Shown: positions 1-8,606 of the stretch, one piece after another
How the letters are laid out: every line of letters begins with the position of its first letter
Position numbering within the stretch: the first letter of the stretch is position 1
From: Escherichia phage LF82-9
Length of the DNA stretch: 64,000 nt
Strand: one strand, 5' to 3'
Sequence record: PV660452
The notes under the pieces: model-generated
Told to the model about the DNA's origin: nothing
Seen by the model: only the letters and a program-made list of their open reading frames with translations
Database searches by the model: none
Program-made: the position numbers and the translations under genes

Positions 1-754
1 TTTGATAGTACTCAGTTTTAGTTGGTTTAAAAATTCGAATCAGCGCTTCTTCAGGATACTTATTTCTGTCGAAGCTATTATTTGGATCGGTTATATAAAG
101 CGGTTGACCTAATTGAATTGCACATTCAACCACTTGTTCAAAACGATAACATGGGTCACTAATTCGAAATGGATGAAAAATACCATCTAGATGAATAGGA
201 GCCAAATCACCTACAAGACGCTGCATGATGGAAGGACGTATAACTTTCTGAGTTACGATAATCTTATTACCATCTGCACCGGCGTTAACCAGCACTTCTT
301 TTTGACGTTCATTCAACACGGTAGTTTGAAGTGAACGATTAACTGACAACATATCGGTTTTTAAGAATTCGTCAATATAAAAACGTGGTTTATTAGGGTC
401 TGCCGTGATATTGAAATTGAATTCTACATCAAAAGCGCCGTCATATCCAGTGATATCTGTTATTAGAAAATCACAATCATAATAAGCAATTAATGAATCA
501 ACCACAAATTCATTTTCAGACCAGAAATATTTACGAGTGTTATACGCGTTATCTTTATACCATAATGGAACAAACTTAAATTCCGGGAAAAGACGTTCAC
601 ATTCTTTAATATCAGATGCATTACGTGGATATGTAATCACATCACCTGGATTAGCACGGTGCAAATGAAGTTGGAAGTTGCCATCCTTAAGGATAGCATA
701 CTGTCCAGTTTCATAAGACCGCATACTCAAGATAGGTACGCGGAAAATAGCCAT
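1..754 (-). CDS. hypothetical protein, partial (continues past window start), at the position T4 gives to beta-glucosyltransferase; candidate DNA sugar transferase
   Basis: Hand translation of minus strand is open from ATG 754..752 to position 1 (MAIFRVPILSMRSYETGQYAILKDG...), start overlaps stop of gene 42 homolog; no similarity to T4 Bgt visible by eye. Confidence 0.5.
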   Translation of the reverse strand, partial: MAIFRVPILSMRSYETGQYAILKDGNFQLHLHRANPGDVITYPRNASDIKECERLFPEFKFVPLWYKDNAYNTRKYFWSENEFVVDSLIAYYDCDFLITDITGYDGAFDVEFNFNITADPNKPRFYIDEFLKTDMLSVNRSLQTTVLNERQKEVLVNAGADGNKIIVTQKVIRPSIMQRLVGDLAPIHLDGIFHPFRISDPCYRFEQVVECAIQLGQPLYITDPNNSFDRNKYPEEALIRIFKPTKTEYYQ

Positions 755-1470
755 TAGTCAAGGAATCCTTTAACATAATCAAAATCACGTTCAAACACAT
801 GGGCACTTACCATGGTATGAGTATAATCACCAACTTCTACACCACATTCGTTAGCGATATAATGAAGTAATTTTCCTTGGAGATAAAAATCCAACTGCAT
901 AACAACAGCACAGTTCTGAGAACGCATATGACAGTGGGTATAAAGCTTACCATCGCGAATATAATAAGTCACTGAGTCAGTACATGGATATTCAAGTGTT
1001 TCGTCCGAATCAAGCAAAGCCTGATCAGAACTTTCTAGAATTTGGAACACAACTCTTCGAGAGTTAGGTTTCTCTTTAAGTTCTTTTAGAAGAGCTGGTA
1101 ATTGGGCCGCAATGCGAGGACCATAGAAAGTGTTGAAGTTCGCCGGCAAAGCGTCTGATTTAGGTTTAGAAATAAATTTAGCGACATTAGGATATGCCTT
1201 AAACGCTTCTTCTGCATCAGTACCACCAGAAATCATAAACTTCCAGAAGTCTTCGGCATATTCATAAGAGATGCGGTTAATACGTGGGTCGGTCATTTTG
1301 AATGATGATGGATTGTCAACAACTACTGTCATGGACCCGATTTCATTACAACGTCCAATACGAGAATCAGTTACGAATTCAGGATTTTCTAAAATTTCAC
1401 GATTGACTGCTTTAAATGCGGCTTGAAAATCTGCGGCTTTGATATATTTCATTGTGTTATGTTTTCCCAT
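754..1470 (-). CDS. 42: dCMP hydroxymethylase (gp42 homolog, thymidylate-synthase fold), divergent from T4
   Basis: Motif PCTDSVTYYIRDGKLYTHCHMRSQN aligns with T4 gp42 MCTNTVQYLIRDKK..MRSND (catalytic Cys; Asp at cytosine-specificity position); ATG at 1470 with GAGGT SD. Confidence 0.8.
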   Translation of the reverse strand: MGKHNTMKYIKAADFQAAFKAVNREILENPEFVTDSRIGRCNEIGSMTVVVDNPSSFKMTDPRINRISYEYAEDFWKFMISGGTDAEEAFKAYPNVAKFISKPKSDALPANFNTFYGPRIAAQLPALLKELKEKPNSRRVVFQILESSDQALLDSDETLEYPCTDSVTYYIRDGKLYTHCHMRSQNCAVVMQLDFYLQGKLLHYIANECGVEVGDYTHTMVSAHVFERDFDYVKGFLD

Positions 1471-1512
1471 GTTTACCTCAATACAATTTATTATATACTC
1501 AATTCGTAAAGC

Positions 1513-1752
1513 TTATTTGAATTTCTTGGCAATGTTGATATAACGTAAAGCTTCAGAATCTATACTTCCAAGAACACTATGAAGGAATGCATCAGTGTAG
1601 TATTCCAATTGAACAGGTTCTTTAATCACTTTAGCCGCTTTGGTTTCAAACAGGCCCATAAGGGCCTTTTTAAGAATTTGTTCGTTAGTGTTCAGTTTTA
1701 TAGTCAAAATCTCTTCATTAAGTTGGTGGTTAAAAGTTTTTCTAGAAATCAT
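1513..1752 (-). CDS. hypothetical small protein
   Basis: 79-aa ORF co-oriented between the Cys-rich ORF and gene 42. Confidence 0.4.
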   Translation of the reverse strand: MISRKTFNHQLNEEILTIKLNTNEQILKKALMGLFETKAAKVIKEPVQLEYYTDAFLHSVLGSIDSEALRYINIAKKFK

Positions 1753-2909
1753 TCCGGGTACCTCAAAGCGTCATCAGAGTTAGTTATATCAATAATAGAT
1801 ATAGAGTTTTCTGATAACCCATTTTTAGATAACTGACGTTTATAATATCTTTCACAATATGTACACGTCGTCCCGCAGATTTCATTAGCACAATCGAAAT
1901 CTGGATGTCTGAACCACCTTTTTTCTAAAAAACCGTCTAACAATGAGGTTTCAATATTTACTGTATGTGAAAACTCAGTCTCATTTTCAAGAGTGAAAAT
2001 AGTCTCTAAAGGCTTCCACAGTTCTAACAAATTACCTTCAAACTTTTCAGAAGCGTATGCTTCAAGAACTTTCAAAATGTAGTCTGTGCTACCTGTACGT
2101 CCTGAAACTTTGAATTGAGTGATACCAATATCATTATAAAGTTTCAAATCTTGAGGACGAACAAAACGAGTTCTCAACCAGTTAAATGGGTCTGTATCAC
2201 GAGCTTTAATGCAGTGTTGCATTGGATATCCATTTAAGGATTTAGCATCATCAGCTGTAACATCAGTACTATGGAAAATATAGCAAGAGTCACGATAACT
2301 ACAATGTGTTGTATACCCTTTACCAGCATTAGAACAGAACTCATTTACAAGAACTTCAAATATTATATTGTTCTTATTGCAAAACTCTGCTGCACGCTTC
2401 AGGAAAGAAACTGAACGGTTCTTATGAATTCCACAGCAGACCTTTTTGATATTGTATTGGTCATGTAAGTATTTTATTTGAGTTACAGCATCGACATGTA
2501 GAATTGTTGAAACTTCAATCTCAATGTCTTTATTGACTTCACGAACAATTTCCATAACAACAGGGTTAGCGATAGTAATACGCCATACGCCTATTGACCA
2601 AAGATACTGAACATAATCCTGAATAGCTTTCTTCTTCCACTCGACTAGTTCTCTTTTTGAACCAGGATTTATCGTGTTGAGTGTATAGTTAAAGCAAATA
2701 CCTAATTCGTTACAACGTTTAACGTAATCTTCTAACATCTTTTTGTCAACGTCAGGAAGCCTAAAATCAGGTCTGGCTGCTACAAAAGCCATTTCTCTTG
2801 TAGAGCCATATACTTCGTTTATCAAGCTATTAGGATAGGTTTTATTGAGCTCTACGATTTTATCAAGAAGAGCTAAATCAAAATTCGTTCCGATTTTAAA
2901 AGTATTCAT
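1749..2909 (-). CDS. hypothetical Cys-rich protein in the sugar cluster (C-terminal CxxxCx5CxxC cluster; possible metal/Fe-S binding; function unknown)
   Basis: 386-aa ORF, ATG at 2909; C-terminal CANEICGTTCTYC motif; weak resemblance to U32-type enzymes not verifiable by eye. Confidence 0.6.
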   Translation of the reverse strand: MNTFKIGTNFDLALLDKIVELNKTYPNSLINEVYGSTREMAFVAARPDFRLPDVDKKMLEDYVKRCNELGICFNYTLNTINPGSKRELVEWKKKAIQDYVQYLWSIGVWRITIANPVVMEIVREVNKDIEIEVSTILHVDAVTQIKYLHDQYNIKKVCCGIHKNRSVSFLKRAAEFCNKNNIIFEVLVNEFCSNAGKGYTTHCSYRDSCYIFHSTDVTADDAKSLNGYPMQHCIKARDTDPFNWLRTRFVRPQDLKLYNDIGITQFKVSGRTGSTDYILKVLEAYASEKFEGNLLELWKPLETIFTLENETEFSHTVNIETSLLDGFLEKRWFRHPDFDCANEICGTTCTYCERYYKRQLSKNGLSENSISIIDITNSDDALRYPE

Positions 2910-2965
2910 TTTTTTGCATCTCGCGTTAATTGATGCGATGGTTTTTGCAGGTCTTACTTAAATTA

Positions 2966-3367
2966 TTATAGATTTGGTTTATATGATTTAAATGTTTCGA
3001 ATTCGCCTTTATTCATAAGAGCTTTGAATTCGTCAGGACGCATAGCTTTGTCGTCGATAATCCAATCATATACTGGTTTATGTGTTAGCAAATTATGGTA
3101 CTTCAAACCAATGTTTTCCAAGTTCTGAATCAGACTTGGGAGAATGTCAATTGCTATACGACCAGGACCTACCGACTTCATACCACGGGCAGTGTAAAGC
3201 GTTATGGTATGCCCTGCATCATACAGAGCATTAATGGCAGACACCATTTCGACGTCTGGTTTGAAGTTCACGTAATCACGATTGTTATTCCACTCTGTTA
3301 TACAATCATCGACATCAAAACAAAGATTAAGCATGTTTTCTACACGGTGCATTAGATTCGTTCCCAT
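2966..3367 (-). CDS. HAD-superfamily phosphatase/phosphomutase-like protein
   Basis: N-terminal FDVDDCITEW matches HAD motif I (DxDx[T/V]); 133 aa; start uncertain (overlaps upstream gene by 16 nt). Confidence 0.6.
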   Translation of the reverse strand: MGTNLMHRVENMLNLCFDVDDCITEWNNNRDYVNFKPDVEMVSAINALYDAGHTITLYTARGMKSVGPGRIAIDILPSLIQNLENIGLKYHNLLTHKPVYDWIIDDKAMRPDEFKALMNKGEFETFKSYKPNL

Positions 3368-5037
3368 TGATGAGTGATATCGCCACCGATTGGACGATAA
3401 GAAACACCAGTTTCTTTATCAGTTAGTACCCATTTACCAGGATTTTTTGTAATCAGAGTAGCCGTTACAGGTTCTGCTACGTCATAACTAATAGAGCCGT
3501 CTTGAAGTACACGGCCCATGTTACGTAATTGCTTAGTCAGAAGTTCCATACCTTTATAATATGCGGCTACCGCTTTAAGTGGATTATTCTTGAAATAACC
3601 ACCTAATGCAATCCAGATAATTGCTACGGCCAAATGATGATACTCGTTAAACGAACTCATCTTTCCATATTTGTAAACTAATGGATTGATGTTAATAGTC
3701 ACATTACAAGTTGTTTCATCAATAGTAAACTGTCCCCAGGTCGGATTAGCATTGAATTCATCATAACCTGAAACAGCATAAAGCACTTTAGCTTCATCGT
3801 ACAATTTTGGCCCGTAAATCTTGGTTTCGCCAAAATATCCACGAGGGTCGATAAACTTGACTTCGCCGTTATCAGTAATCATAGTATTACTGAAGTTTGG
3901 GTCACCGTGAATAACAGAGTACTGTCCCTGAGAACGGTTATGATAACGAATAAGATGTTCTAAAGCTTGTTTCAACATTGGCTTCAGACGTCCAATTTTA
4001 GTGTAGTTCACGTGTGTGATTTTACCGAATGAATCAATCAATGGCTGAATGCTTTCACAACGATCAATAACTTTCGTATAGAACTCTTTAGTGAAATCAC
4101 AGCGAACAGTTTCAGGACTTACAAAATAAGTGTCCGTGCTGAATTTCAGTGCATCTAAAATTGCATCAACAATTTGTGGACGAGCAAGACTTGATTTGGA
4201 TTTAATATATTCAAATGCCGGCTTACCTTTAATACGTTCCATTTCAAAATTATTTTCATTTACCGAAACTAACTGAGGAACTGAATCTGATTTCACTTTC
4301 AAATACCATGAAATCTCATCTTTTTGAAGAGCTCGACCTTGTTCGGTTAACGCGAATTTAGTTACAGTTTCTTCGCCAATTTCAACTGCATTAAAACTAC
4401 GATTCAGTTCACGAACTTCATGAGCCTTTTCAAGTTTAGGCATATCACCTAAATCAATTAGATTCATAAGCTCTGATTTATTGAATGCACTGCCGTAAAG
4501 GAATTCTACGAAATCACGGCCTTTGCAGTATTCGTGAATTTCCTCATCAGTAGAACCCATGTAAAATTCCCAATCTTTGAACTGATAAATTCCTACAACA
4601 TTACCGCCTGTTGAACCTACGTTAGTGATATTTTCACCATCGAAATTATATCGACATTCATCACCCTTAACATAGATTGCGTTAACATTCCAAGACCATG
4701 AACCAAAATCGGGAATAATATCACACCAGTTAACAATTACATTATGGCCATCTAAATCTTTATATAATTTAGCAAGAGCATAAGCAGAACCATACGCTTC
4801 ATCAACTGTACGAATAGTCACATTGAACCCTTCTTGCTCACAATAAGCTCGAACAGTTTCAGCAAATTTTGAATGAACTACTACAATAATTTCATCTGCG
4901 CCAAGGTCAGAATAAATTGTATACAAATTGCTCAGAATAGTGTCTTGTTTATAGTTAACAAGCACCTTAGGAATATGATGCGTTATTGGATACAAACGAG
5001 TTGCCAGTCCAGCACCAAGAATAACAGCTTTTTTCAT
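3352..5037 (-). CDS. bifunctional sugar-phosphate nucleotidyltransferase (N-terminal) / sugar kinase-like (C-terminal, APH/choline-kinase fold)
   Basis: N-terminus MKKAVILGAGLATRLYPITHHIPKVLV resembles GlmU/RmlA-type NTP-transferase G-x-G-x-R motif; C-terminal HGDPNFSNTMITDNGEVKFIDPRGYFG resembles kinase catalytic loop HGDxxxxN...D. Confidence 0.75.
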   Translation of the reverse strand: MKKAVILGAGLATRLYPITHHIPKVLVNYKQDTILSNLYTIYSDLGADEIIVVVHSKFAETVRAYCEQEGFNVTIRTVDEAYGSAYALAKLYKDLDGHNVIVNWCDIIPDFGSWSWNVNAIYVKGDECRYNFDGENITNVGSTGGNVVGIYQFKDWEFYMGSTDEEIHEYCKGRDFVEFLYGSAFNKSELMNLIDLGDMPKLEKAHEVRELNRSFNAVEIGEETVTKFALTEQGRALQKDEISWYLKVKSDSVPQLVSVNENNFEMERIKGKPAFEYIKSKSSLARPQIVDAILDALKFSTDTYFVSPETVRCDFTKEFYTKVIDRCESIQPLIDSFGKITHVNYTKIGRLKPMLKQALEHLIRYHNRSQGQYSVIHGDPNFSNTMITDNGEVKFIDPRGYFGETKIYGPKLYDEAKVLYAVSGYDEFNANPTWGQFTIDETTCNVTININPLVYKYGKMSSFNEYHHLAVAIIWIALGGYFKNNPLKAVAAYYKGMELLTKQLRNMGRVLQDGSISYDVAEPVTATLITKNPGKWVLTDKETGVSYRPIGGDITHQWERI

Positions 5038-5078
5038 GTTGTGGTCCTCATTGGTAAGTAGGAGTATTGTACACTATT

Positions 5079-5222
5079 CTAGTTAAAGCATTCATACTTT
5101 GCCTGTAGACCAATCATAATCCATCCAATTACAAGTGTTGGAATCATTACTGGAGCCGTTAAGCTCCAGTAGATAGTCATGACAAGCATCAATAGTAAAA
5201 GTCCTATTGTTATTGCTTTCAT
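5079..5222 (-). CDS. small hydrophobic protein (47 aa), not in ORF track
   Basis: Hand translation MKAITIGLLLLMLVMTIYWSLTAPVMIPTLVIGWIMIGLQAKYECFN; ATG overlaps stop of SIS gene (ATGA); lies where T4 has imm. Confidence 0.4.
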   Translation of the reverse strand: MKAITIGLLLLMLVMTIYWSLTAPVMIPTLVIGWIMIGLQAKYECFN

Positions 5223-5854
5223 TGCTCGCCTCGTAACATGGCACCTAGTGCACCGCCTGGATGGAACTTAAGGAAATCATTAGAGGTAAATCCACGTTCA
5301 GACGAAAGGTTGATAGCAAAAGTATCGATAAGCGCTAACAATAATGTAGTGGACATGGTCGGAGCCAGAGAATTCTCATCAACCTCTACTGCGATGCCTG
5401 TACAGAAAGAGTAATCAAAAAGGGCTTCATTTTCTTGTGGAATGTCTGGGTTACAATGCAACAGAATCTGTTTGACGTTCGGTCGAATCATTTTAAGATG
5501 CTTAGCCACGCCTATCATTTCTTCAGTTTTACCAGAACGACTAATATGAATCAACACATCATTAGGCGCAATAAATCCTGCATCACCGTGAGAATAATGC
5601 CCAGTGTTCAAGTACATACTTGGGATACCGAGTGAAGCAAATGTCTCAGAAGCTTTAGTTGCAATATTAGCATTCTTACCAACACCTGTAATAATTACTC
5701 GGCTTTCATAATTACTAAGTCCAGGGCGTCGAAGAGTTTCTAGAATAGCATTATAACGAGCAGGGTTTTGACTAATTACTTTGGCCATAGCGGCCAAAGA
5801 AGAAGCTTGTTTTATGATTGCGTCAATAGCGATATTAATAGGAGTAGTTTTCAT
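5219..5854 (-). CDS. SIS-domain sugar-phosphate isomerase (KdsD/GutQ-like arabinose-5-phosphate isomerase candidate)
   Basis: TGVGKNANIATKASETFASLGIPSMYLNTGHYSHGDAGFIAPNDVLIHISRSGKTEEM matches KdsD-type SIS motifs (GxGKS..ASTGTPS..HGDLG..ISNSGES). Confidence 0.75.
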   Translation of the reverse strand: MKTTPINIAIDAIIKQASSLAAMAKVISQNPARYNAILETLRRPGLSNYESRVIITGVGKNANIATKASETFASLGIPSMYLNTGHYSHGDAGFIAPNDVLIHISRSGKTEEMIGVAKHLKMIRPNVKQILLHCNPDIPQENEALFDYSFCTGIAVEVDENSLAPTMSTTLLLALIDTFAINLSSERGFTSNDFLKFHPGGALGAMLRGEQ

Positions 5855-5894
5855 ATTTCTCTCATTTAATTAGTTTACCGTCCATGGCATTATA

Positions 5895-8606
5895 TCAAAA
5901 ATCGAACATATCGAAGAGAGATGCTTTCTTCTCGTAATCGAGTTTCGCTGCTGATGTGAATCCTTCAAGTGGTTTAATAAATGTCTTCTCAAGGAGAACA
6001 GTGTAGTCCATCCAATGAAGTACGTCGTCTTTAATTAAATCTGTGATTTCAGTACCAGAAGGCCATGCGATACATTTATCACCGAACGGGTTTCCTTCAC
6101 GTAAAGGCAGAACATATACTTTTTCACCTTCTACAACTTGTGGAGCATCAATATTACCTTTGATAGCTCGGTTATATGTCAGAATTCCACGAATATGGAA
6201 CGGACATTTAGGACCAGGGAATCCACCAACGTCATATTTAGCAATGTTATTCGCAGAAGATACCGACGCGATGCTAATATAATTCAATTGACGGAATTCT
6301 TTTTCAAACTCTTTAAAATATTCTTGTAATGATTCTTCACCTTCTTGAAGCATACGGCGAATACATTCTTTAAGAGCTTTCTGTACTGCTTTAGGGGTCG
6401 AAGATTTCTGTGTTTCGAGACCCATGATTTTGAGTTTAGGCTCAGCGTATCTGGTTCCTTCCATATCCCACACGTTTAATGCATAACGTTTCTTACCAGT
6501 CCAGAATCCGCCAATACCTTTAGAACCGAGTGGAGGACCAGCGATAGCTTCTCGGTCCATGAACATTAAGTGTTGTTTATTGTTCATGTATTCACACATT
6601 TCACGGAAACCTCTATCAATAGCCGGTTCCATACGTTCACGAGCGAACTTATCTAAGAAGTCTACCCAATGGTTGGTATCACGGAATTTAGATTCACCAA
6701 CCTTATCAATAATTTTATCTGCAGATACGTAAATAGAGTCTGTATCACCATAAAGAACGAAAGCTTCACCTTCTGTACCACAAACTTCGTTCAGATATTC
6801 ATTAACTTTACGTTCAATCCACTGTAAAGCCATTTGCCCGAATGTTGTGATTGCAGTAGCATTACGCAAATCATAATAACGGAACCAAACGTTTCCAAGT
6901 GCACCATAAAGTGAGTTGATGAGCAATTTACGGTTAATCTGTGCAGTCATACCTGCAACTTCAGTACGTTGAGCTCTAAACAACATTTCATTAAGAGATT
7001 TAGCAGACAACTTTTTAATCTTTTCTTTAATCTCGTCAGTGAAGTCAAAACGATAATCAACATCTAATGGTTCATCAACAGAAAGATTAGGATTATGTAA
7101 GGCTTCTTTAATTATTTCACCATTACGTTGAGCTGCAAGCATGTAACCTTTATGTTCTTTACGTTGATTAAAGACCTTAGTGATTTCAGTTGGAACTACA
7201 CCATCACGGTCTTTATAATACATCATGCCGTTAGGAGAGCAACTGTACACATCTGAAGGACGTTCAGCGATTGCGTTAATATAATCATGCAGTGGAGCTA
7301 CTTTAAACGTTCCTGCTATTGTTTCCGGGCTAATATTCACTTGGCGAATAATACTTGGATACAGGGATGTAAGGTCGAAACTCATTACATATTTGTATCG
7401 ATTTGGAATAGGTTCCTTAACAAAAGCACCGGGATAAGGTTGAACCGGGTGAGAACGACCTTGTGGAATCACCTTGCTCTGCTCTTTAAGGCTATTAAAA
7501 ATAATAGCATCCCATGTTTTAATTGGGCTAAACACAGATTGAATCTGTATCTTAGCATAATAACCCATGTCCAAACTCAAGTTGATGAACTGACGCTTAG
7601 CATCAATTTGCAATACACGATACACGTCGATAATGTTATAAGAAATATACCGTTGGTGATTGCTTTCACGAAGCTTAGAAATAGGGCCGTCATATTTCAG
7701 TTTACCAACGTTCAATTCAAATTCTGAAATGTAATCCAGAGAATACGACGGTTGATTGGTAAAAGAGAATTTTTTGTAAAGGTCGATATAATCAAGAACA
7801 GAGATACCGAACAATGTAATGATTTCACGAGAACCATACATGTTTTCGATAACTTTAACACGAGTTTTACGATGTGGTGATAAACGTTTCGCAGTAGATT
7901 CGCCAAAAATATTCTTGATTCGGTTATACACATATGGAATATCAAATGACTCAACGTTCCATCCAGTCAAAATGACAGGAGTTTTCTGTTGCCAGAAGTT
8001 GAGATATTCCATCAACAATTCTTTTTCGTTATCGAACGGCATATAAATGATTTTATCGATAATTTCAGATGGAACTTCATCACCGCCTTGTTCTTGAAGC
8101 TTAGCCGCAATTTCGATAGACCATTCTTCTACATTACCATACGGAGAATTCAATAGATCAAATACGTAGAACCTGTCGTCAATTGAGTCATAATGGGTGA
8201 TAGCATCAATCGGATGTTTTGCTTGTGACGGCTCAGGGAACCCATCCGGAGATGTTACTTCGATGTCGAAGTTAGCCACACGAATTTTTGTATGGTCGTA
8301 TTTGATTTCATAGTTATAAGTGTCAGACAAATACGCCAATTTGAAATCGTCCATGCCGAGTGCTTCAAGTCCGATATCTTCCATGCGTTTAATCCATTGG
8401 GAGGCATCACGCATATTAGCGAACAACTTACGAGTACACGGCTTACCGTAGATATCGAAATATTTCGTAGCCTGACTTTCTGGGCAATGAGCAAACAATG
8501 ATGGTTTATATTCTACTTCACGAGTACATTCACGGCCATTAGAATCGATGTAACGTTCAAAAATTGAATCACCAATCTGTTCAACCGTTAAGTAAAATTC
8601 TTTCAT
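5895..8606 (-). CDS. 43: DNA polymerase gp43
   Basis: 903 aa; matches RB69/T4 gp43 as recalled, incl. DIE exonuclease and YGDTDS polymerase motifs. Confidence 0.97.
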   Translation of the reverse strand: MKEFYLTVEQIGDSIFERYIDSNGRECTREVEYKPSLFAHCPESQATKYFDIYGKPCTRKLFANMRDASQWIKRMEDIGLEALGMDDFKLAYLSDTYNYEIKYDHTKIRVANFDIEVTSPDGFPEPSQAKHPIDAITHYDSIDDRFYVFDLLNSPYGNVEEWSIEIAAKLQEQGGDEVPSEIIDKIIYMPFDNEKELLMEYLNFWQQKTPVILTGWNVESFDIPYVYNRIKNIFGESTAKRLSPHRKTRVKVIENMYGSREIITLFGISVLDYIDLYKKFSFTNQPSYSLDYISEFELNVGKLKYDGPISKLRESNHQRYISYNIIDVYRVLQIDAKRQFINLSLDMGYYAKIQIQSVFSPIKTWDAIIFNSLKEQSKVIPQGRSHPVQPYPGAFVKEPIPNRYKYVMSFDLTSLYPSIIRQVNISPETIAGTFKVAPLHDYINAIAERPSDVYSCSPNGMMYYKDRDGVVPTEITKVFNQRKEHKGYMLAAQRNGEIIKEALHNPNLSVDEPLDVDYRFDFTDEIKEKIKKLSAKSLNEMLFRAQRTEVAGMTAQINRKLLINSLYGALGNVWFRYYDLRNATAITTFGQMALQWIERKVNEYLNEVCGTEGEAFVLYGDTDSIYVSADKIIDKVGESKFRDTNHWVDFLDKFARERMEPAIDRGFREMCEYMNNKQHLMFMDREAIAGPPLGSKGIGGFWTGKKRYALNVWDMEGTRYAEPKLKIMGLETQKSSTPKAVQKALKECIRRMLQEGEESLQEYFKEFEKEFRQLNYISIASVSSANNIAKYDVGGFPGPKCPFHIRGILTYNRAIKGNIDAPQVVEGEKVYVLPLREGNPFGDKCIAWPSGTEITDLIKDDVLHWMDYTVLLEKTFIKPLEGFTSAAKLDYEKKASLFDMFDF

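Follow-up and report, generated by a model that had tools for sequence, protein, structure and literature searches.

The window analyzed here is a stretch of 64,000 nucleotides from Escherichia phage LF82-9 (sequence record PV660452), and this report concerns its first part, where two proteins encoded on either side of a thymidylate-synthase-like gene had been proposed in an initial annotation as candidates for the DNA sugar transferase. The overall explanation towards which we lean is that the region constitutes the base-modification core of the arabinosyl-5-hydroxycytosine pathway in an RB69-like phage. The truncated open reading frame (ORF) at 1..754 almost certainly encodes a glycosyltransferase (GT) of the GT-B fold, orthologous to RB69 gp46:47. 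The 386-amino-acid (aa) cysteine-rich protein encoded at 1749..2909 belongs to the Peptidase_U32 family (hereafter U32), and its family, conserved residues, and gene neighborhoods suggest, with what we judge to be an even chance, that it is an O2-independent pyrimidine C5-hydroxylase. Each of the two had been put forward as a possible glycosyltransferase or accessory redox enzyme; the former description fits the ORF at 1..754, and the latter, not the former, fits the 386-aa protein, the only one of the two that could be placed with confidence in a non-transferase family.

Bases 1–6000 of the window match 210 phage records, the best of which are LF82-4 (99.1% identity) and RB69 (97.8%), and the window is that of an RB69-like Mosigvirus. 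All genes around these positions are on the minus strand. The order annotated in the RB69 and LF82-4 maps is, in the direction of transcription, DNA polymerase (43), SIS isomerase, bifunctional nucleotidyltransferase/kinase, HAD-like protein, ‘peptidase’, a 79-aa ORF, thymidylate-synthase homolog, 299-aa hypothetical protein, Tmk-like kinase, and uvsX, which identifies the region as the RB69-type cytosine-modification cluster.

The central gene at 754..1470 (minus strand) had been read as gene 42, i.e. as a deoxycytidine monophosphate (dCMP) hydroxymethylase. The family was correct (Pfam Thymidylat_synt, 56.9 bits), the chemistry was not. The product is identical to RB69 gp48 at 236 of 238 residues, matches the solved structures PDB 9iqc/9iqu with E 2.4e-161, and carries the published signature of 5-hydroxy-dCMP synthases (L143E, D169N, and N177D); the position corresponding to ThyA 169 is Asn, as in all 5-hydroxy-dCMP synthases, and not the Asp of the T4 gp42 type. 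RB69 gp48 has been shown experimentally to produce 5-hydroxy-dCMP, with the oxygen derived from 18O2 and with flavin bound, and the DNA of RB69 contains mono- and di-arabinosylated 5-hydroxycytosine, not arabinosyl-5-hydroxymethylcytosine (Lee et al., NAR 2026, PMC13326640). Since ‘gene 42’ is a gp48-type 5-hydroxy-dCMP synthase, flavin- and O2-dependent, the acceptor base is 5-hydroxycytosine (5hoC), and the 5-hydroxymethylcytosine assumed earlier has to be abandoned.

The frame of the truncated ORF runs on the minus strand from an ATG at 754..752 to window position 2 and comprises 251 stop-free N-terminal codons, the remainder being cut off by the window edge and not by a stop. The ORF is real, and the complete gene in the near-identical LF82-4 encodes 299 aa. 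The start codon and the TAA that ends the synthase gene overlap in the sequence TAATG, which makes the suggested translational coupling to ‘gene 42’ plausible. The gene sits between the thymidylate-synthase-like gene and the Tmk-like gene/uvsX; on the T4 map this is the slot of beta-gt, and the neighbors agree with the claim that the ORF occupies the place of the T4 beta-glucosyltransferase. The protein is 98–99% identical to the RB69 copy and shares orthology and synteny with gp46:47 beside a D169N-type synthase. One extra T is present in the 2003 RB69 record, which reads CTTGTAGTGTGA, as compared with CTTGTAGGTGA in the window and LF82-4 (about 207–212 of the window; about 4205–4212 of locus L001). 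The extra T splits the RB69 gene into ORF046c and ORF047c, the window copy being intact; the gp46/gp47 split has been attributed to a sequencing error (PMC13326640).

The 299-aa protein gave no Pfam or NCBIfam match at E ≤ 0.1 and no PDB sequence match at E ≤ 10, its sole PHROG is unannotated, and it does not match a curated GT family sequence model such as Glycos_transf_1. The earlier impression that there is no similarity to Bgt also held, as sequence similarity to the T4 beta- and alpha-glucosyltransferases was not detectable. GT-B membership is therefore assigned by fold only. The AlphaFold model, built from an alignment of 65 sequences, had a pLDDT of 95.4, and its two Rossmann-like domains superposed on known GT-B enzymes in the fold search, where the matches included sucrose-phosphate synthase (6kih; score 17.0), BshA (16.4), PimA (15.7), the phage HY126 GT (9iqz; 13.8), and T4 alpha-GT (1y6f; 13.0). 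The invariant residues R197, D223, K246, and H270-P-G272, together with position 275 (Glu or Asp in 65/65 sequences), cluster in the C-terminal half, where GT-B enzymes bind the nucleoside diphosphate sugar. A candidate for the EX7E-type acidic motif of the C-terminal domain reads E267-X7-E275 in the window protein, but position 267 is not conserved (Thr or Lys in most homologs). The homolog search recovered 132 relatives, and those with source names are phage proteins or are encoded on contigs the size of a phage genome; the transferase was found in 348 phage records and adjoins a hydroxylase gene and a Tmk-like kinase in every one of more than 40 loci.

The fold can be read from the model, and donor and acceptor are taken from the literature and synteny, which make it probable that the 299-aa protein is the first arabinosyltransferase. 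RB69 gp46:47 and DLP3 gp79 have been modelled as the putative ‘arabinosyltransferase 1’ by Lee et al. (PMC13326640), and our assignment confirms this published prediction and adds nothing new to it. The homolog in Shewanella phage Thanatos, TH1_063 (300 aa, encoded beside a thymidylate-synthase homolog), displays UDP-xylose pyrophosphorylase-type activity in vitro, and individual DLP3 transferases gave no transfer to 5hoC-DNA; both observations would fit a protein that forms the nucleotide sugar and leaves the transfer to DNA to another protein, such as a gp3-type GT. We consider this quite unlikely, since the fold is GT-B and not that of a nucleotidyltransferase, a dedicated nucleotidyltransferase/kinase is already encoded, and the mono-arabinosylated Thanatos has been described as encoding only the TH1_063-type arabinosyltransferase (PMC13326640). 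The reversibility of GT-B enzymes could account for the formation of UDP-sugar by TH1_063.

The ORF at 1749..2909 (minus strand; RB69 gp50) is likewise real, and its 386-aa product contains 13 cysteines. It matched Peptidase_U32 (PF01136) with 42.2 bits against a cut-off of 22.4 over residues 94–286, and a precomputed PF01136 match exists for all but 3 of the 120 homologs listed. Fold prediction, which had been proposed as a check for both proteins, gave the GT-B fold for the ORF at 1..754 and, for the 386-aa protein, the TIM-barrel-like fold of the solved U32 protein Mk0906 (5d88). The PDB sequence search with the U32 protein returned nothing useful, and the NCBIfam match of UbiU/UbiV type was weak and partial (18.5 bits against a cut-off of 440). 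In a search of all proteins of the representative library, 114 cluster representatives matched at E ≤ 1e-30, a number that rose to 719 when the threshold was relaxed to E ≤ 1e-10.

To compare conserved residues, the phage U32 protein was aligned with the four Escherichia coli paralogs UbiU, UbiV, RlhA, and TrhP from the MG1655 record. The results showed that E185, C203, and C209 share columns with E162, C170, and C177 of TrhP and with E161, C169, and C176 of RlhA, i.e. with the Glu and the first two Cys that have been proven essential in both proteins. C203 and C209 also correspond to C169 and C176 of UbiU, and C233 falls in the column of TrhP C193, RlhA C192, UbiU C193, and UbiV C193; the last two are cluster ligands proven by mutagenesis. 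E185, C203, C209, and C233 are invariant in 121 close homologs. Among 119 distant representatives, C192 was retained in 118 and C203 and C233 in all 119, and position 209 was Cys in 74 and His in 44. The fourth ligand differs between the known proteins (C232 in UbiU, C39 in UbiV; the canonical pattern is CX6CX15CX3/4C or variants of it), and C192 could be the candidate in the phage protein. The predicted [4Fe-4S] site of the U32 domain would accordingly be C192-X10-C203-X5-C209-X23-C233 (codons at 2211..2336, minus strand), just downstream of the conserved E185 (codon at 2355..2357, minus strand).

The C-terminal cysteine motif had been given as CxxxCx5CxxC at the end of the protein; the actual spacing is C340-X4-C345-X3-C349-X2-C352 (codons at 1854..1892, minus strand), and it lies 34 residues before the end. 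These four cysteines are invariant in the 121 close homologs and present in about 113 of the 119 distant representatives, and none of the four E. coli paralogs shows the motif in the alignment, so that it appears as a family-specific second metal site, predicted to hold Fe-S or Zn. The signature of the phage family would be CX10CX5[C/H]X23C plus CX4CX3CX2C, with two predicted four-ligand sites per chain. Many phage records call the protein a ‘peptidase’, ‘putative protease’, or ‘collagenase-like protease’, in keeping with the Pfam family name. We give very little credence to a collagenase-like peptidase, as peptidase activity of the U32 family is poorly supported and its characterized members are Fe-S hydroxylation factors. 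Moreover, the nine conserved cysteines, in two four-ligand motifs, and the nucleotide-metabolism neighbors fit a redox enzyme, and the gene is located in the early replication/nucleotide cluster and not among morphogenesis genes.

A homopolymer run at 2910–2925 (minus strand), immediately preceding the start codon of U32, varies in length between strains. The window and LF82-4 have GATGCAAAAAAATG (A7) and RB69 has GATGCAAAAAATG (A6). A6 puts an upstream ATG in frame, giving the MQKMNT start annotated in RB69, and A7 leaves it out of frame; the conserved U32 start is the ATG at 2909.

The characterized members of the U32 family have been linked to hydroxylation that is O2-independent or dependent on prephenate and Fe-S, and two of them act at pyrimidine C5. 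The ho5C2501 of 23S rRNA requires RlhA, which in turn depends on prephenate and on Fe-S biogenesis; TrhP is needed for the prephenate-dependent ho5U34 of tRNA, which is formed normally without O2, TrhO being the O2-dependent alternative; and UbiU and UbiV, which hold [4Fe-4S] clusters, belong to the pathway that makes ubiquinone independently of O2. As the two best-studied pyrimidine-hydroxylating members act on RNA, the catalytic Glu and Cys residues are shared with them, and T4-like phages carry tRNA genes, the phage protein could conceivably hydroxylate the wobble uridine of tRNA like TrhP or C2501 of 23S rRNA like RlhA, thereby tuning translation during infection. There are three reasons why we find an RNA substrate hard to credit. 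RlhA (653 aa) and TrhP (453 aa) have additional C-terminal domains, in place of which the phage U32 protein has its own four-Cys tail; the conserved neighbors are the DNA-base GT, Tmk-like and nucleoside monophosphate kinases, dCMP deaminase, dNK, NT5C, and DNA polymerase, with no tRNA or rRNA functions among them; and U32 substitutes for the gp48-type enzyme beside the GT.

This substitution emerged when loci around U32 and transferase homologs were compared, with genes labelled by our own ORF calls and profile hidden Markov models, spot-checked by Pfam, and with flanks of 6–8 kb scanned. The 299-aa transferase family was found nearby in 36 of 50 distinct U32 loci. Fourteen of these 36, all from Straboviridae, also contained a D169N-type synthase, and the remaining 22 had no such synthase within 6–8 kb; pairing of the transferase family with U32 in place of a gp48-type enzyme was seen in many phage-like contigs and in contigs binned with genomes of anaerobe type. 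Conversely, about 24 transferase loci had the D169N synthase and no U32. Typical layouts were Tmk-GT-U32 where the synthase is absent and thymidylate synthase homolog-GT-Tmk where U32 is absent. That the transferase accompanies the synthase, U32, or both is the pattern expected of two unrelated enzymes doing one step. The thymidylate synthase homolog in one U32 locus (L031) was considered as a gp48-type enzyme and rejected, as it is a canonical ThyA with D169 and N177.

The same comparison bears on the possibility that U32 acts on the sugar. The initial annotation had described the 386-aa protein as embedded in the sugar cluster, and this is correct: in Straboviridae, U32 comes directly after the HAD, kinase/nucleotidyltransferase, and SIS sugar genes, and in some metagenomic loci it follows a SIS-NTPK gene or is next to an epimerase gene. 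Table 1 of the published work labels RB69 gp50 (RB69p050) ‘sugar or heterocycle reductase’ and names 5d88 as its structural match, but the label is not discussed (PMC13326640). A sugar-tailoring enzyme or heterocycle reductase in the formation or remodelling of UDP-arabinose is, in our view, unlikely. Several U32+GT loci have no arabinose genes within the flanks; in L009, they are replaced by a TET-associated GT, a dUTPase/dCTP-deaminase-fold protein, and UDP-galactopyranose mutase, and the neighbors in L037 match these in size. U32 hence goes with the base and not with the sugar. It is also paired with a nucleotide-kinase/methyltransferase fusion where there are no sugar genes, and conversely the sugar cluster is complete in DLP3, JS98, and WSPA, all of which lack U32. 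Furthermore, the presence of U32 does not follow the number of arabinoses (LC53 is mono-arabinosylated and has U32; Bas46 and RB69 are di-arabinosylated, RB69 with U32; DLP3 is tri-arabinosylated without it), and no characterized U32 member in the literature found is a sugar enzyme.

The TET-associated GT of L009 (9098–10000; PF20691, 33.9 bits) is encoded directly after U32; such transferases normally accompany a TET/JBP oxygenase. The fusion of a guanylate-kinase-like domain with a SAM-methyltransferase was found with U32 in seven loci, six of them on contigs binned with Phocaeicola, Tannerella, Clostridia, and similar taxa. It forms part of a conserved four-gene module, found in contigs binned with anaerobe-type genomes, consisting of a GP88-family protein, the fusion protein of about 425 aa, a protein of about 267 aa, and then U32 (L004/L064 and L070–L075; e.g. 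L073:2996–7086). The module suggests hydroxylation followed by O-methylation at the nucleotide level, perhaps leading to a 5-methoxy-pyrimidine. Other neighbors of U32 encode dCMP deaminase, thymidylate kinase, UDG, DNA polymerase III alpha, dNK, and NT5C. A 212-aa ORF, called a ‘putative endonuclease’ in LC53 and absent from the window, is inserted between the HAD and U32 genes in L011, L018, L023, L024, and L026 and looks like a mobile homing-endonuclease insertion.

A link to prephenate is also visible in the gene neighborhoods. Where Straboviridae carry U32, a gene for a small chorismate mutase very often comes directly after it (Pfam CM_2 scores of 40.9 and 44.6 bits, the cut-off being 27). 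U32 orthologs with 82–87% identity, from Kanagawavirus, Winklervirus, Yersinia, Proteus, Edwardsiella, and Klebsiella phages, have chorismate mutase directly downstream, and the arrangement was seen in loci of Enterobacter, Serratia, Yersinia, Proteus, Edwardsiella, Klebsiella, and EcS1-type phages. Chorismate mutase makes prephenate, and since RlhA and TrhP need prephenate, its position beside U32 indirectly supports the link. Unrelated large phage-like contigs carry fusions of DAHP synthase and chorismate mutase, or DAHP synthase alone, beside U32; the DAHP synthase ORFs are of 340–372 aa (L040, L043, L053, and L066) and 248 aa (L006 and L029), with or without a C-terminal chorismate mutase domain. 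The phages appear to boost the supply from shikimate to prephenate. The small-gene slot after U32 is highly variable. In some Klebsiella phages (L016, Marfa-type, versus L020/L021), the Tmk-like gene is found upstream of U32, and the synthase follows U32 either directly or after a gene for an 81-aa chorismate mutase.

In the window, the slot is occupied by the 79-aa ORF at 1513..1752 (minus strand; RB69 ORF049c), the ATG of which overlaps the U32 stop as ATGA. We considered this ORF as a chorismate mutase and rejected it, as there was no Pfam match at E ≤ 10 and the hhalign probability was 0.9%. It belongs to phrog_8601 (unknown function), has no Cys and no detectable family, and in L022, L024, and L030 it is present in addition to a gene for chorismate mutase. 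Its N-terminal ‘RINHxLNE’ recurs at the start of the chorismate mutase (114 aa) of LC53/EcS1-type phages, which looks like the fusion of a remnant. The 79-aa ORF was found only next to U32 in this locus set (Mosigvirus, PM2, Yersinia TG1-type phages, and L030), and it could encode a partner protein of U32.

U32 homologs were found in 221 phage records, and the top host genera are all enterics, with Shewanella also represented; these hosts are facultative anaerobes. The transferase is carried by 57 Acinetobacter phage records. Acinetobacter, a strict aerobe, is not among the ten most frequent host genera of U32, all of which have 3 or more records, and at most 3 Acinetobacter records can therefore carry U32. 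A strict rule that divides aerobic from anaerobic hosts was considered and found too strong, since JS98 and WSPA lack U32; the protein is optional and dispensable, and the split is not clean. The species-representative genome collection yielded 13 U32 hits, all in metagenome-assembled genomes (MAGs) or isolates. Most of them are from taxa of anaerobes, namely Erysipelotrichales, Oscillospiraceae, Gastranaerophilaceae, Romboutsia, Tannerella, Phocaeicola, Clostridia, and Angelakisella; the remaining hits are in Woesearchaeota, BRC1, Planctomycetota, and unclassified Bacillota MAGs. U32 is much better conserved than the neighboring transferase: the identity to the proteins of Shewanella phage Thanatos is 79–82% for U32 and 47.5% for the transferase.

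Taken together, these data would be accommodated by the following scheme. The products of the SIS, kinase/nucleotidyltransferase, and HAD genes would make UDP-arabinofuranose. U32 would use prephenate instead of O2 to hydroxylate a pyrimidine deoxynucleotide (dCMP being the most likely one) at C5, and would so yield the same 5-hydroxy-dCMP that the adjacent flavin/O2-dependent synthase makes in air. The 299-aa transferase would then put the first arabinose from UDP-arabinofuranose on the 5-hydroxyl of cytosine. The role of U32 as an oxygen-independent source of the 5-hydroxycytosine attachment point is not described in the literature found, the transferase being already published: our search returned no report joining U32, phage, and hydroxycytosine, a search for chorismate mutase and arabinosyl phage DNA returned only an unrelated review, and the 2018 RB69 paper does not mention ORF046, ORF047, ORF049, or ORF050. 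In a preprint on transposon mutagenesis of phages that mentions LC53 and Bas46, the passages found contained no essentiality data on the genes considered here.

Several points speak against this scheme. DLP3 makes arabinosyl-5-hydroxycytosine without U32, gp48 alone is enough in aerobic E. coli, the purified DLP3 transferases, each alone, had no activity on 5hoC-DNA, and the label published for gp50 names a reductase (PMC13326640). Even TrhP and RlhA still await a reconstitution of direct catalysis, and the canonical fourth Cys ligand (TrhP C197) is not aligned in the phage protein, which has Thr247 at this position. The DLP3 cluster contains no U32, chorismate mutase, or 79-aa ORF, and the U32 block is also missing from JS98/Dhakavirus, which infects E. 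coli, and from Serratia phage WSPA; the absence from Acinetobacter phages may go back to no more than one or two events in the phylogeny. Contigs that appear to have U32 only could have a gp48-type gene outside the 6–8 kb flanks. Finally, the window phage itself encodes no chorismate mutase, the 79-aa ORF being unrelated, and would hence depend on host prephenate.

A variant of the scheme concerns the order of events, as Lee et al. could not tell addition of the first sugar at the nucleotide level from addition at the DNA level, and reported that RB69 has a separate dNMP kinase handling 5-hydroxy-dCMP (PMC13326640). The hydroxylase-GT-Tmk triad was kept in more than 40 loci, and fusions of the transferase occur in five of the loci: four have a Tmk-like kinase domain at its C-terminal side, and one has a HAD-like domain at its N-terminal side. 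The fusion proteins are encoded in L038, L046, and L057 (605–606 aa), L052 (550 aa), and L122 (551 aa), and the Tmk-like part gave phmmer E-values of about 1e-24 to 1e-34. The Tmk fusions, the existence of another RB69 kinase for 5-hydroxy-dCMP, and the negative assay with DNA as acceptor leave room for nucleotide-level addition: U32 or gp48 would make 5-hydroxy-dCMP, the 299-aa transferase would glycosylate the nucleotide, the Tmk-like kinase would phosphorylate the glycosylated nucleotide, and the polymerase would incorporate the sugar-bearing dCTP. That the first arabinose is added to the free nucleotide before replication seems to us a minor possibility.

The genes that would supply the sugar donor follow at higher coordinates, all on the minus strand, and their functions are assigned from the literature. 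A 133-aa HAD-like phosphatase of the UDP-arabinofuranose pathway (RB69 gp51; the counterpart of phage HY126 AfhF) is encoded at 2966..3367 and had no Pfam match. It is followed by the 561-aa bifunctional sugar-1-phosphate nucleotidyltransferase and kinase at 3352..5037 (RB69 gp52:53; AfhE-like) and the 211-aa SIS-domain arabinose-5-phosphate isomerase at 5219..5854 (RB69 gp55). Between the latter two, a very hydrophobic 47-aa ORF at 5079–5222 (minus strand) probably encodes a small membrane protein; it falls in the RB69 ORF054c region, for which the annotation notes a similarity to the 42-imm intercistronic region of T4.

Phages are known to introduce 5-hydroxycytosine into their DNA by one route only, which needs O2, yet these coliphages and their relatives infect gut bacteria that often live without O2. 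If U32 is an O2-independent, prephenate-dependent nucleotide hydroxylase, this would explain the upkeep of the modification in anoxia, and no other U32 enzyme has so far been assigned to the metabolism of DNA precursors. The phage protein would also be a small, soluble, single-chain member of the family, and may be easier to reconstitute than RlhA, TrhP, and UbiUV, the chemistry of which is still unsolved. From the coupling of U32 with GT and with kinase/methyltransferase genes, one would predict that anaerobic viromes contain DNA with as yet undiscovered 5-O-glycosyl pyrimidines, and perhaps 5-methoxy pyrimidines; the coupling also provides a simple genomic marker for such phages. Nucleotide-first arabinosylation, if true, would be a departure from the T4 paradigm.

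With respect to known systems, the window transferase shows no substantive difference from RB69 gp46:47 and DLP3 gp79, save the split in the 2003 RB69 record. It is about 50–100 residues shorter than the matched GT-B enzymes (299 versus 324–522 aa). The T4 glucosyltransferases use a hydroxymethyl group as acceptor and glucose as the sugar, whereas the pathway of the window transferase involves a phenol-like ring 5-OH and arabinofuranose, and unlike the T4 enzymes, the family is fused to a Tmk-like kinase in some phages. The phage U32 protein resembles RlhA and TrhP in belonging to the same Pfam family and in keeping the essential Glu, the two Cys, and the third cluster Cys, and the chemistry proposed is the same, i.e. 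O2-independent hydroxylation of pyrimidine C5 that needs prephenate and Fe-S. It differs from them in being compact (386 aa) and devoid of their RNA-associated C-terminal domains, in the fourth Cys ligand, which has moved, probably to C192, in the additional CX4CX3CX2C site, in the predicted substrate, a deoxynucleotide destined for DNA, and in being phage-encoded.

The likeness to UbiU and UbiV lies in the proven [4Fe-4S] cysteines, which align with C203, C209, and C233, and in the number of clusters, as the UbiU/UbiV functional unit has two and the single phage U32 chain may have two as well. UbiU/UbiV are also the anaerobic twin of O2-dependent hydroxylases; they differ from the phage protein in being a heterodimer, in their lipid quinone substrate, and in the carrier UbiT. 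TrhO and TrhP likewise form a pair of one O2-requiring and one O2-independent enzyme for one step, in organisms that meet both conditions, and the T4 ribonucleotide reductases NrdAB and NrdDG are an aerobic/anaerobic pair. The anaerobic ribonucleotide reductase gene is a landmark in aligned Straboviridae genomes, including those of Mosigvirus phages; a regular-expression search for its glycyl-radical motif RV[CT]GY gave no match in the window. By the same dual-enzyme logic, gp48 and U32 would parallel the E. coli pairs TrhP/TrhO and UbiUV/UbiIHF, with the difference that the pairing of the phage enzymes is deduced from gene neighborhoods only.

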